Origin: Escherichia coli
Lineage (GTDB): Bacteria; Pseudomonadota; Gammaproteobacteria; Enterobacterales; Enterobacteriaceae
Strand: one strand, 5' to 3'
NCBI RefSeq assembly: GCF_003334355.1
Contig: NZ_QOWP01000038.1
Length of the DNA stretch: 30,981 nt
Numbering within the stretch: position 1 is the first letter of the stretch; every line of letters begins with the position of its first letter. A program made the position numbers and the translations under genes. The notes beneath the pieces are model-generated. The model worked only from the letters and a program-made list of their open reading frames with translations, searched no databases and had not been told where the DNA came from. This document shows positions 24,019-26,886 of this stretch, in pieces.

Positions 24019-26466
24019 TTAACCGTCATGCATCATGCTGGCACGGGCGCGCGCACGTTTATCCCGCTCGTATTTTTCGAGCGCATCCTGTAACTGGCGG
24101 TCAAGCTGTGTCCCCGGCGCAGTACCACCCGTCAGGCTGATGTGATATTCGTTTTTACTCTGGTCTACATAAGAGCGGCCAGCCGGTGCCGTAACCGGCT
24201 GATAAGCCTGATAACCTGCATAAGAGCTGGTCGCCGGAATATAACCACCGGTGCCATACGTGGCGGCATGAGTCCTTGCGGCGGTCTGGTCAAGTGTGTC
24301 TGACTCTTTGTTGATGACCCCGAGCTTTTCCAGTACCCAGTCAATGCCGCTGCGTAATTTGTTGAACGCATTAAGCGGCAGCATCAGCGCGTCAGCCAGT
24401 GCCTGCCCGAACATGACCCCCGTGTCACGGCAACGGTTCAGGGTGTCCTGGGTGGCTTTGACCGGGGCAATCAGGTTTTTAAACCACTGCCACGCAGCCT
24501 GTAACTTTTCACCCAGCCAGTCAAACACCGGCTTAAGTGGCGTGAACAGTTCTCCCACCGGCGCAAATGCCGCTTTCAGCCCTTCCACCACACCGCCAAA
24601 GAATGCGCTGACAGGCTCCCAGTATTTACGGATAAGCAACGCCCCGGCGACAATGGCGGCCACCACGGCCACAACCGGCCAGCTAATCGCCCCGATGGCG
24701 GTCATAACAGCACTGCCAACCGTCGTGAAGACTGCCCCCATTGCGCCTGCTGCCGCGATGATGGCATTGATGCCAGTGATAACCGGCCAGGCTACAAGAC
24801 CAATGGCACCGATGATGCCAATAAGCGCCAGCGCGCCACCGACAATGAGGCCGATGGTTGACGCCAGTGATTTGTTTTTCTGGATCCAGCCGTCGAGTTT
24901 TAACACATACTTTGTGGCCGTCTGCGTGAGCTTACGCAGTGCGCCTTCCTGCTGGTCAAACAGGTCAGTCCCCACCGCCTCATAAGCGGACTGAAACTCC
25001 TTAAAGTCACCGCCGAGGTTGTCCTGCATGATATTTACCAGCTCTGCGGTCTTCCCGTCTGAGGCTTTAAACGCAGCGGTCAGTTTGTCCAGCTTTCCGG
25101 TTGAGGCGGCAGTCATCAGCACAGCGGCGGCTGAGCTGGCCTCCTCCCCGAAAATGGTTTTCATGTATTCAGCCTGCTGGGCAGTACCGAGCCGGTTTTT
25201 CTCAAAACTGGCCTGCATTTCTTTCAGAATGGTAAATATTGGTCGGGTATTCCCCTTGCTGTCTGAGGTTTTCACGCCAAGCTCTTTGAGTGCATCCCAT
25301 GCTTTTCCCGTCGGTGCCTGCAGGCGACTTAACACGGCACGGCTTCCCGTCCCCGCCATTGAGCCTGTGATTTTTGCATCATGCAGCGCCCCGACCATTG
25401 CGGCGGTTTCTTCAATGCTGACACCGGCATTTTTTGCCACAGGTGCGGCATAGGTCAGCGCATCGCTCATACCGTCAAAATCGGCGGCGGTTTTGTTCAT
25501 CGTCATGGAGAGAACATCCCCGATATGAGCAACCTTATCGTTTGAAAGCTGAAAGGCAGATTTCATCCCCATCAGCAGGGCGGCGTTTTCCTCCATCGTG
25601 CGACGGTTTGCCAGCGCCATGTTCAGCGTGACCGGCGTTGCCGCCTGAATGGCATCAACATCCCCACCCGCTTTCGCGATGATAATCTGTGCACCGGCCG
25701 CATCATCCGCCGAGGCGGCGGTATTGTCGCCGAGCTGGCGCGCCTGTTTGCGTAGTGCGGTCATTTCGGCGGAGTCTTTTGCCACTCCGAGCACGGCCTG
25801 CAATTCTGAGTTTTTCTGCGCAAACTCATAACCGGGCATCAGCAACTTAACTCCGGCCATCGTTCCCGCCGCCGCAATCCCCACACCGGCAGCGCCTACT
25901 GAGGCCATATTTCCGGCCAGCTCCTTTCCGGCCTGATAACGCTGTTTGACTGCGTTAAGTTTTGCCTGTTGCGCACTGACACGCGCCAGCGCGTCGCGCT
26001 GACGGTTAAGCTGTGCGGTGGTTTCACTGATACGGTTTTTCAGTCCCTGCTCATCATGTGCAAGATTGCGGGTATTAATTCCCACAGCGGCCAGTTCCCG
26101 CTGCTGGCGTTTAACGGAATCCGTCAGGCGGTTATATTTCGCCTGTAAGTCCTCCGCCGCACGCTTTGCGGATTCCAGCACTTTCGCCTGAGCACGGGTC
26201 GGACGTTCGGTGTTTTTAAACTGTGTGGCAAGGGCTTCTGCTTCCTGCCGAGCCTTTTCAAGTGCATGACCAGTCACGGCGAGCTGTGCACTGGTCTTGC
26301 GGAATCCCTCAATACGGGATGCCTGACCGTTCAGCTCGCGCAGTGATTTTTGTGTTTCCCGGATATCCCCCGACAGCGACTTGCTCGCTGTGCGGATGGA
26401 TTTAAACGGGCGGGATGCCTGGTCAACAGCCCTGAGCAATACCTGTAATTTTACATTGTTACTCAT
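24019..26466 (-). CDS. T: Tail tape measure protein T
   Basis: 815 aa; Ala/Gln-rich coiled-coil N-terminal half, Gly/Ala-rich hydrophobic segment in the middle; start ATG overlaps the E+E' stop. Confidence 0.92.
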   Translation of the reverse strand: MSNNVKLQVLLRAVDQASRPFKSIRTASKSLSGDIRETQKSLRELNGQASRIEGFRKTSAQLAVTGHALEKARQEAEALATQFKNTERPTRAQAKVLESAKRAAEDLQAKYNRLTDSVKRQQRELAAVGINTRNLAHDEQGLKNRISETTAQLNRQRDALARVSAQQAKLNAVKQRYQAGKELAGNMASVGAAGVGIAAAGTMAGVKLLMPGYEFAQKNSELQAVLGVAKDSAEMTALRKQARQLGDNTAASADDAAGAQIIIAKAGGDVDAIQAATPVTLNMALANRRTMEENAALLMGMKSAFQLSNDKVAHIGDVLSMTMNKTAADFDGMSDALTYAAPVAKNAGVSIEETAAMVGALHDAKITGSMAGTGSRAVLSRLQAPTGKAWDALKELGVKTSDSKGNTRPIFTILKEMQASFEKNRLGTAQQAEYMKTIFGEEASSAAAVLMTAASTGKLDKLTAAFKASDGKTAELVNIMQDNLGGDFKEFQSAYEAVGTDLFDQQEGALRKLTQTATKYVLKLDGWIQKNKSLASTIGLIVGGALALIGIIGAIGLVAWPVITGINAIIAAAGAMGAVFTTVGSAVMTAIGAISWPVVAVVAAIVAGALLIRKYWEPVSAFFGGVVEGLKAAFAPVGELFTPLKPVFDWLGEKLQAAWQWFKNLIAPVKATQDTLNRCRDTGVMFGQALADALMLPLNAFNKLRSGIDWVLEKLGVINKESDTLDQTAARTHAATYGTGGYIPATSSYAGYQAYQPVTAPAGRSYVDQSKNEYHISLTGGTAPGTQLDRQLQDALEKYERDKRARARASMMHDG

Positions 26467-26886
26467 TCGTGTTTCCGCTTCGCCGGAGCGCCTTTTCGCG
26501 CCATGTGATGAGTTCGGTCAGGCTCATGGGATACAGTTCTGATGGCGGCCAGTGAAATATCACTGCCACATCCGCCATCAGGTCATCGACCGAGAGATTT
26601 TTCGGAAACGTCACTGCACCGAGTTCGGCGACAAAAAACCGACCACCTTACCGGCCAGCGCCACAAGGTCAGGCAGTTCCAGCGCGGCGACTTCCTGCTC
26701 GGTCAGCATCGGTGCCGTCATGCGCGGCAGCACCTTAATCAGTGCATCGACTTCAGAGTTCGCGACCGCAGCCAGACTGACACCGCGCAGCGTCCCGGCA
26801 TTGGGTTTCATCAGCGTGACCTGTTCGATAACCTGCTCACCACGCTTGACCGGATTGTCCAGGGTAATCACATTTTCTTTGTTCAT
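26459..26886 (-). CDS. E': Tail assembly chaperone E+E' (programmed -1 frameshift product)
   Basis: In-frame slippery heptamer T-TTT-TTG on the minus strand (26638-26632) near the 3' end of E; after a -1 shift the frame stays open for 43 codons (...VAELGAVTFPKNLSVDDLMADVAVIFHWPPSELYPMSLTELITWREKALRRSGNTNE) to TAA at 26461-26459, overlapping the T start. Confidence 0.75.
26611..26886 (-). CDS. E: Tail assembly chaperone E
   Basis: 91 aa MNKENVITLDNPVKRGEQVIEQVTLMKPNAGTLRGVSLAAVANSEVDALIKVL... matches P2 gpE as recalled. Confidence 0.92.
   Translation of the reverse strand: MNKENVITLDNPVKRGEQVIEQVTLMKPNAGTLRGVSLAAVANSEVDALIKVLPRMTAPMLTEQEVAALELPDLVALAGKVVGFLSPNSVQ
26632..26638 (-). other. Programmed -1 ribosomal frameshift site (TTTTTTG)
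   Basis: X-XXY-YYZ heptamer in the E zero frame (GGT TTT TTG), the conserved position for tail chaperone frameshifting in P2-like and lambda-like phages. Confidence 0.7.

Follow-up and report, generated by a model that had tools for sequence, protein, structure and literature searches.

The E/E' −1 frameshift cassette in the tail operon of a P2-like Escherichia coli prophage

The E/E' and G/GT gene pairs

In the tail operon of phage P2, a −1 shift at TTTTTTG yields, according to PMC3091744, a 91-aa E protein and a 142-aa E+E' fusion. For P2, PMC3091744 and PMC5009743 describe both proteins as synthesised and E' as essential for tail assembly, and both sources cite Christie et al. (2002, J Bacteriol 184:6522) as the original study. 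The gene pair G/GT of phage lambda (Levin 1993; Xu, Hendrix, Duda 2004, 2013, 2014; summary in PMC5009743) resembles it in that a −1 slip late in the upstream ORF lets a single start yield two products, and in lying between the major tail tube and tape-measure genes, the places held here by FII and T on either side of E/E'. In that summary, the lambda products are proposed to be a chaperone that joins the tape measure to the tube protein and is absent from virions, long and short product are made at a fixed low ratio, and the frequency of the shift is put at ∼1:30 in lambda but 2–3 fold higher in P2-type phages (PMC5009743), with ∼7–10% reported for P2. The chaperone mechanism has been shown by experiment for lambda, whereas for P2 it is inferred. 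Christie and colleagues reportedly describe no sequence similarity of the P2 products to the lambda proteins.

Phage 186 and other Peduoviridae have homologues of the pair, in 186 as orf51/orf52 (gene H), with TTTTTTG at the corresponding codons, 57 codons in the −1 extension and an overlap at ATGAGTAA with the start of the tape-measure gene; the differences are an amino-acid identity of ∼74% and a longer E N-terminus (111 aa), and the annotation goes no further than 'probably produced by a translational frameshift'. The frameshift sites of dnaX and IS911 share with the cassette studied here an in-frame X XXY YYZ heptamer and a Shine-Dalgarno (SD)-like element in the interval 6–17 nt upstream (Sharma et al. 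2014, PMC4066793), but they combine an efficient A AAA AAG with a 3' hairpin, whereas the cassette has a weak heptamer, no conserved and rightly spaced 3' structure, and an SD-like element that is partly forced by the encoded amino acids and is a candidate only.

The cassette, its products and its operon

The window, a stretch of 30,981 nt from an E. coli contig, covers the right 9 kb of the prophage. Its 428-nt cassette differs from that of P2 at seven nucleotides, all within the first 132 nt and hence all in E; six are silent third-position changes and one leads to an amino-acid change (S29N), while from nt 133 to the end, which includes the heptamer and the whole of E', nucleotide identity is 100%. 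The reference record of P2 gives E+E' as a joined CDS and, at the matching spot, carries the feature '-1 translational frameshift'. Heptamer, frame, product sizes and neighbours (FI and FII upstream; T, U, D and ogr downstream) are all equal to those of P2; one difference is that a DNA invertase and an invertible segment for tail fibres take the place of the Z/fun that P2 has upstream of FI. We consider it almost certain that a P2-like (Peduovirus) prophage of E. coli carries here the programmed −1 ribosomal frameshift known from the FETUD operon of P2. As the P2 E/E' frameshift is already known, the case is real but ordinary and leaves the P2 and lambda paradigm as it was.

The earlier note, made from the letters of the window, had placed TTTTTTG at 26638-26632 of the minus strand in the zero frame of E, nine codons before the E stop, with a −1 frame open for 43 codons to a TAA at 26461-26459. 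The heptamer lies as claimed, its first T being the third base of a GGT codon (zero frame GGT TTT TTG) nine codons ahead of the TGA at 26613-26611, and the end of the −1 frame is equally confirmed, but its length has to be corrected: 57 sense codons follow the slip, or 62 codons if the frame is counted from its own upstream stop (TAA 26650-26648). The T start is the ATG at 26466-26464, as had been stated, but the TAA does not overlap it and sits in T codons 2-3, so that it is the E' and T reading frames that share 8 nt at ATGAGTAA. An overlap of U and D had also been noted, and it consists of one common base, in TAATG at 23527-23523. In-frame X XXY YYZ heptamers have a frequency of ∼0.28% per codon in the window's 27 long ORFs (8869 codons), and 4.6% of positions are followed downstream by at least 57 open −1 codons; for any one gene, the expected number of heptamers within its last 10 codons that have such an extension is thus ∼0.001. 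The coordinates of all features are given in Table 1.

Table 1. Features of the tail operon and of the frameshift cassette, in transcriptional order.
Feature	Size	Position	Strand	Remarks
Late-promoter (PF) activator half-sites, putative	TTGTG-N11-CCAAC	28736..28756	−	P2 annotation and spacing matched
FI, tail sheath	396 aa	27474..28664	−	Opens the operon; 98.5% aa-identical to P2 FI
FII, tail tube	172 aa	26943..27461	−	Directly upstream of E; 100% aa-identical to P2 FII
FII-E intergenic hairpin	9 bp	26915..26935	−	dG −16.5 kcal/mol, z −2.98
E, zero-frame tail assembly chaperone	91 aa	26611..26886	−	ORF; P2 gpE of the same length, 98.9% aa identity
SD-like element, AGGTG/GGTGG		26643..26648	−	Motif and spacing within the set stimulatory in E. 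coli (PMC4066793)
Slippery heptamer, T TTT TTG		26632..26638	−	X XXY YYZ in E frame; annotated frameshift position of P2
E' extension	57 sense −1 codons + TAA	26459..26632	−	With E residues 1-85 gives E+E', 142 aa
T, tape measure	815 aa	24019..26466	−	ATG 8 nt inside the end of E' (ATGAGTAA)
U	159 aa	23525..24004	−	One base common to its stop and the D start (TAATG)
D	387 aa	22362..23525	−	P2 comparison
ogr, late-gene activator	72 aa	22063..22281	−	Last P2-homologous gene; 100% aa identity to P2 Ogr

The gene E product matches Pfam Phage_TAC_7 (PF10109) over residues 7-85 (E 1.6e-11) and PHROG 103 'tail protein' (E 2.6e-45). Residues 104-139 of the fusion, which belong to its −1 part, match Pfam Phage_P2_GpE (PF06528, E 2.3e-21), and the E' part also matches PHROG 1756 and 6416; a search of NCBIfam with E, E' and the fusion gave no match, nor did a PDB sequence search. 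In the mechanism expected from P2, most ribosomes would read E through to the TGA and make the 91-aa chaperone, while a minority would slip back by one base on U UUU UUG, probably with peptidyl-tRNA-Phe re-pairing from UUU to UUU, and read 57 further codons into the 142-aa E+E', ending 8 nt inside gene T. If the products work as those of lambda G/GT do, the E part common to both may bind the tape measure and the E' domain may recruit the tube protein FII, which would polymerise into a tube of the right length, and neither E nor E+E' would remain in the virion.

Two elements may bear on the expression of the operon. The PF half-sites, which fall within the 3' end of the invertase gene, are taken from their match to P2 to be the putative binding site of the late-promoter activator. 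The hairpin between FII and E stands at a position matching that of an annotated partial terminator, tI, in phage 186, and it is possible that it acts likewise as a partial terminator, which would lower the expression of E-T-U-D relative to FI/FII.

Conservation of the two-frame arrangement and competing readings

An interruption of the −1 frame in closely related phages had been named in the earlier note as what would speak against a frameshift, and none was found. The close relatives are 80 near-identical viral contigs, picked by E+E' similarity, which inform on intactness and not on divergence; the heptamer stands in its place in all 80, and both frames are intact in each of the 77 whose contig does not end within the cassette. 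A nucleotide-diversity scan over the 80 loci was discarded because register was lost in the flanks and because the loci owed their selection to E+E' similarity.

More divergent relatives keep the same arrangement: 97 of 98 have an in-frame slippery heptamer (TTTTTTG in 87) followed by 51-82 open −1 codons. Among relatives from different genera, all 19 show 51-71 open −1 codons behind an in-frame X XXY YYZ heptamer, which is TTTTTTG in 14 and TTTTTTT, TTTTTTC, CCCTTTC, AAATTTT or GGGAAAG in the other five, and because the heptamer sequence changes in these five, it is slipperiness and frame that are kept. Of 80 further divergent loci, found by searching with a 5-sequence alignment, 79 retain the arrangement (73 with TTTTTTG and 6 with TTTTTTC). 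In the one exception, L130, a run of seven T fuses both frames at the DNA level. Searches with tblastn located the E and −1 halves in two different frames in 401 phage records, the fused E+E' proteins align through the junction, and the ATGAGTAA/ATGAGTGA junction is conserved among enterobacterial relatives.

A rival reading takes E' for a small gene of its own, 51 aa long and translated from the GTG at 26614-26612, with no need of a frameshift. This is how RefSeq/PGAP treats it in E. coli EC31, where a separate 51-aa 'GpE family phage tail protein' is annotated, many phage records likewise give separate E' ORFs, and the GTG does lie 6 codons past the slip site. We nevertheless find this reading highly improbable: the 14 nt ahead of the GTG (CCGAACTCGGTGCA) hold no properly spaced SD sequence, and in 15 of 17 sequences the first −1 start lies 6-40 codons past the heptamer, at a place that varies and often falls within the conserved DLMADIA motif. 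Conservation of the −1 frame sets in right at the end of the heptamer, with an x-A-E-x-G motif that precedes any −1 start in those 15 of 17 sequences, and in 7 of the 17 the −1 frame opens only 2-5 codons ahead of the heptamer. In a 13-sequence alignment the heptamer is unchanged while the wobble bases beside it vary, which equally argues against an independent E', and for P2 the fusion product is reported in PMC3091744 and PMC5009743. E' should therefore be annotated as part of a joined, ribosomal-slippage CDS, where RefSeq/PGAP and many phage records now give a free-standing ORF with an arbitrary start.

The same two products could also arise if RNA polymerase slipped on the run of six T and added a base to some mRNAs, from which E+E' would then be read conventionally. 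Such a run is present at the slip site, a weak terminator-like hairpin with a U-tract coincides with it, and in L130 a seventh T does fuse the frames at the DNA level. Efficient transcriptional slippage in bacteria, however, needs longer homopolymer runs, typically of 8-9 or more, and no such run exists in the relatives that carry CCCTTTC, AAATTTT or GGGAAAG; these relatives still display the two-frame layout and the strict X XXY YYZ register, which matters for ribosomes and not for RNA polymerase. The terminator-like pattern does not exceed chance (2 overlapping matches against 0.8 ± 0.9 expected), and we give polymerase slippage hardly any weight compared with a ribosomal shift.

It could further be argued that the cassette is intact merely through recent acquisition, as a silent relic never expressed in this host, so that its intactness would say nothing about function. 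The SOS response does not induce P2-type prophages, no more than the right 9 kb of this one is visible, with P2 homology stopping just past the ogr terminator, and the P2 attP core was looked for in the window and is absent. Against this, FI, FII, E, T, U, D and ogr, the complete set of seven tail and late genes seen here, have P2 lengths, no internal stops and 98.5-100% amino-acid identity to P2, the seven nucleotide differences of the cassette are confined to E and with one exception to third positions, and the promoter half-sites are retained. A 99.7%-identical prophage in E. coli EC31, located between cpxP and fieF, is complete from int to ogr; its integrase has 326 aa, against 337 aa in P2, and a different integrase module is what the missing attP core fits. 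We regard a silent relic as very unlikely. From the intact cassette and the overlapping starts and stops, the earlier note had argued that the tail module is functional and not decayed. The intactness of the module is supported, and better so by the direct comparison of its genes with P2, together with the half-sites and the EC31 prophage, than by the cassette alone; that tails are made may be expected from these data.

Context and efficiency of the slip site

For a programmed −1 ribosomal frameshift, the heptamer is a weak one: in E. coli reporters, UUUUUUG alone supports 0.12% frameshifting, rising to 0.25-0.77% with strong 3' stimulators (PMC4066793 supplement), and the efficiency reported for P2 is thus not explained by the heptamer alone. 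Weak as it is, the heptamer has been conserved in phages ranging from those of Escherichia to those of Burkholderia and Pseudomonas.

Downstream of the heptamer, no conserved hairpin or pseudoknot was found at 5-9 nt, with only a 4-bp stem nearby, and PMC3091744 likewise reports no stimulatory structure. The 102 nt that follow the heptamer in the window do fold with a z of −3.1, but the corresponding folds of relatives range from z +0.6 to −4.3 with stems unlike one another, and the excess of structure is weak when set against control coding regions, which give negative values too under a synonymous-codon null (E' −1.50, against −0.46 for the body of E, −0.60 for T and −1.05 for FII). We rejected a downstream RNA stimulator, given that stable stems begin only ∼50 nt past the heptamer and differ by lineage.

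Upstream, AGGTG and GGTGG stand at distances of 7 and 6 nt from the heptamer, within the 6-17 nt over which SD-like elements are reported as experimentally stimulatory in E. coli (PMC4066793). Among relatives, such an element occurs above background, though weakly so beyond amino-acid constraint: in one set it is found in 15 of 20 sequences against 7.8 expected under the synonymous-codon null, and in another in 11 of 17 clusters against 8.6 expected (P 0.05), where it is often forced by Gly-Gly. Recurring in most relatives, it is a plausible candidate for a frameshift stimulator.

We tentatively suggest, as a possibility that we hold to be doubtful rather than probable, that the weak U UUU UUG would owe the ∼7–10% reported for P2 to its context, the best candidate being the SD-like element and a second possibility a slip in the P site only, during the wait of the A site for the minor tRNA-Leu. 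Either would refine the accepted account of a textbook recoding site. A P-site-only slip would place Phe instead of Leu at residue 85, and the two modes would differ in the tryptic peptide across the junction: VVGFLVAELGAVTFPK would indicate a tandem slip after Leu has been decoded, and VVGFFVAELGAVTFPK a P-site-only slip with the A site empty.

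The E/E' cassette and its counterpart in P2

The 428-nt cassette (minus strand, 26886-26459), in which the tail assembly chaperone gene E is followed by its -1-frame extension E', lies in the right end of a P2-like prophage, with E. coli genes, among them fieF, pfkA and ftsN, below ~22000. Around the slip site the minus strand reads GGT AAG GTG GTC GGT TTT TTG TCG CCG AAC TCG GTG CAG TGA; in the frame of E the heptamer is T TTT TTG, which follows the X XXY YYZ pattern that tandem -1 slippage requires. After the slip the frame continues as GTC GCC GAA ... GAG TAA, and the computed E+E' fusion has 142 aa. 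The earlier note had correctly placed the heptamer, the -1 stop (TAA, 26461-26459) and the start of the tape measure gene T (ATG, 26466-26464), as well as the GGT codon, nine codons upstream of the E stop; its 43 open -1 codons must be corrected to 57 sense codons, within a -1 frame open for 62 codons when counted from the stop that precedes it (TAA, 26650-26648). The overlap it saw between E' and T exists, the ORFs sharing 8 nt, but the TAA sits in T codons 2-3 (ATGAGTAA), not on the ATG; U and D do share one base (TAATG).

Features of the prophage region
Feature	Position	Strand	Remarks
Right end of P2-like prophage	22063-30981	minus	order ogr, D, U, T, E/E', FII, FI, then invertase and invertible tail-fibre segment
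Gene E	26886-26611	minus	91-codon ORF, ends TGA
Heptamer TTTTTTG	26638-26632	minus	first T is third base of codon GGT
Inverted repeat in E', 10 bp (CUGAUGGCGG / CCGCCAUCAG)	26539-26581	minus	~50 nt past slip site
FII-E hairpin, perfect 9 bp (CCGGUCAGC...GCUGACCGG)	26915-26935	minus	dG -16.5 kcal/mol, z -2.98
P2 late-promoter activator half-sites TTGTG-N11-CCAAC	28756-28736	minus	P2 spacing kept
DNA invertase gene	28724-29317	minus	adjoins tail-fibre segment
Inverted repeats flanking tail-fibre segment	29480-29644, 30817-30981		at least 165 nt, 98% identity; second reaches window end

The feature is real and intact, and is the textbook E/E+E' frameshift already known from P2, for which PMC3091744 (citing Christie et al. 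2002 and Xu et al. 2004) gives a -1 frameshift at TTTTTTG and the same product sizes as computed here, 91 aa for E and 142 aa for E+E'. Compared with P2 (NC_001895, 19430-19857), the cassette has seven differences, all in its first 132 nt, six of them at third codon positions and one leading to S29N; the rest of the cassette from nt 133 onwards, with the heptamer and the whole of E', is identical. Many Peduovirus genomes match the 551 nt around E at 98-99% identity. In its annotation, the P2 record has a joined CDS 'E+E'' (gpE amino terminus in common, -1 frameshift, essential tail protein) and marks a 'site of -1 translational frameshift' adjoining the heptamer. Within the fusion, Pfam Phage_TAC_7 ('tail assembly chaperone proteins, E, or 41 or 14') spans residues 7-85 and Phage_P2_GpE residues 104-139, and PHROGs agree on both domains. 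The annotation of P2, the identity to it and the domains in both frames thus bear out the frameshift first read from the sequence.

As a background, 25 X XXY YYZ heptamers fall in frame among the 8869 codons of 27 long ORFs in the window, and a -1 frame open for 57 codons or more follows just 4.6% of the codon positions. About one gene in a thousand would be expected to combine such an extension with a heptamer among its final ten codons, an estimate that leaves out the match of the -1 product to its Pfam family at 2e-21.

Conservation of the signal and the status of E'

An interrupted -1 frame in close relatives, which the earlier note had regarded as contrary evidence, was not encountered: each of 80 near-identical viral contigs, with 62 distinct nucleotide sequences among them, has the heptamer in place, and neither frame is broken in the 77 whose locus is not ended by the contig edge. 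Among 50,697 phage records, tblastn matched 418, and 401 of these carry both halves in two frames. The comparison was extended across genera to 19 relatives (Klebsiella, 186, Yersinia, Burkholderia, Stenotrophomonas, Ralstonia, Salmonella, Pseudomonas, Halomonas, Arsenophonus, Aeromonas, Vibrio, Acidovorax, Mannheimia and P88). Every one of them carries an X XXY YYZ heptamer in frame at the corresponding site, after which the -1 frame stays open for 51-71 codons; the heptamer is TTTTTTG in 14 and TTTTTTT, TTTTTTC, CCCTTTC, AAATTTT or GGGAAAG in the other five. Since the heptamers vary while their register is kept, the conserved trait is, as judged from these sequences, slipperiness in the right codon register and not one particular string. 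The frame could instead be changed by slippage of the polymerase, but the register that the relatives keep points to the ribosome.

In an alignment of 13 sequences the heptamer is invariant and the flanking wobble positions are variable, and alignments of the fused E+E' proteins continue over the junction. A second set, independent of the first, comprises 80 viral loci in 17 clusters (80% protein identity); 73 of them have TTTTTTG and six TTTTTTC. The remaining locus, the only exception among 98 divergent relatives, is IMGVR_UViG_2551306414_000002, where T7 replaces T6 (681-688) and brings E and E' into one frame, probably through a homopolymer sequencing error or in a defective copy or prophage.

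Databases commonly present E' as a separate small gene with its own start: RefSeq/PGAP annotates a free 51-aa protein from GTG in E. coli EC31 (L001, 7096-7523), and many GenBank phage records (loci L087-L103) do likewise with varying starts, the annotated proteins having 29-51 aa overall. However, the -1 frame is conserved (x-A-E-x-G) immediately past the heptamer. Among the 17 sequences checked, 15 offer no possible -1 start until 6-40 codons past the heptamer, at a variable position and with no credible SD; in seven, moreover, the -1 frame opens just 2-5 codons ahead of the heptamer. Records that give E' an arbitrary start, not a joined ribosomal-slippage CDS, constitute a systematic annotation gap at a recoding site.

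Mechanism and efficiency of the slip

What is observed is the slip signal, both frames with their domains, and the conservation of all these; by analogy, E and E+E' would act on T and the tail tube protein FII as lambda G and GT do on tape measure and tube. PMC5009743 gives a lambda G:GT ratio of ~30:1, with P2-type phages shifting 2-3 fold more often, and states that G, together with the G part of GT, forms a coat on the tape measure, that the T domain binds the tube protein and that neither G nor GT is in virions. For such a frameshift the low reporter values of UUUUUUG in E. coli are a puzzle: unstimulated, it gives only 0.118%, and adding the IS911 hairpin brings this to 0.247% or the IS3 pseudoknot to 0.765%; UUUUUUC with the pseudoknot reaches 7.6% (PMC4066793 supplement).

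No conserved 3' structure was found at the usual 5-9 nt spacing after the heptamer; stable stems begin ~50 nt downstream, differ between lineages and stand weakly above control regions under a synonymous-codon null. The inverted repeat in E' is common to 186 and a Klebsiella phage, while in other lineages another local hairpin forms at the M/V-A-D-I-A codons and shows apparent co-variation, M/V to I/T; overall, E' has a weak excess of structure (mean z -1.5 vs -0.5 to -1.0 in controls), and the repeat is too far downstream to serve as frameshift stimulator. A terminator-like weak hairpin followed by the slippery-site U-run (26638-26659, minus; eight pairs, four G-U) is at chance level, with two overlapping hits vs 0.8 expected. 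A candidate stimulator is the SD-like element AGGTG/GGTGG (minus, 26643-26648), 6-7 nt upstream of the heptamer and inside the motif set and 6-17 nt interval found experimentally stimulatory by Sharma et al. (PMC4066793). Motifs of this kind are present in 15 of 20 sequences (background 13%; 7.8 expected from amino acids and codon usage) and in 11 of the 17 clusters of the second set vs 8.6 expected (P 0.05), often forced by a Gly-Gly dipeptide, a pattern that is suggestive only.

The tail module and its surroundings

All tail module products and Ogr have P2 length (FI 396 aa, FII 172, E 91, T 815, U 159, D 387, Ogr 72), lack internal stops and are 98.5-100% identical to P2 in amino acids. The left part of the late-promoter activator site now falls within the 3' end of the invertase gene. 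No more than the right 9 kb of the prophage lies within the window; a 99.7% identical one in EC31 is complete from integrase to ogr. The P2 lengths and identity, the kept half-sites and this complete copy, more than the cassette alone, support the earlier view that the tail module is intact. No U-tract follows the FII-E hairpin, at whose position a partial terminator (tI) is annotated in phage 186; the hairpin may lower E-T-U-D expression relative to sheath and tube.

Where P2 has Z/fun upstream of FI, the window prophage has the invertase and the invertible segment. Alternative fibre C-termini and one fibre-assembly gene lie in the segment, and the region as a whole (28724-30981) is a host-range switch of the Mu G / P1 C type; in EC31 the segment has the opposite orientation. 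P2 homology ends directly after the ogr terminator (~22025), the P2 attP core was not found in the window, and an ORF without assigned function lies between ogr and fieF (21282-21941, minus). The EC31 copy is placed between cpxP and fieF and has an integrase of 326 aa, vs 337 aa for P2 Int, so the integration module is not that of P2. Outside the prophage, a heptamer that ranks among the slipperiest in E. coli, A AAA AAG, stands in frame at 4254, near the 5' end of the core gene ftsN (4204-5163, plus; assigned from E. coli genomes that match it at 100%), and the -1 frame after it is open for 67 codons.
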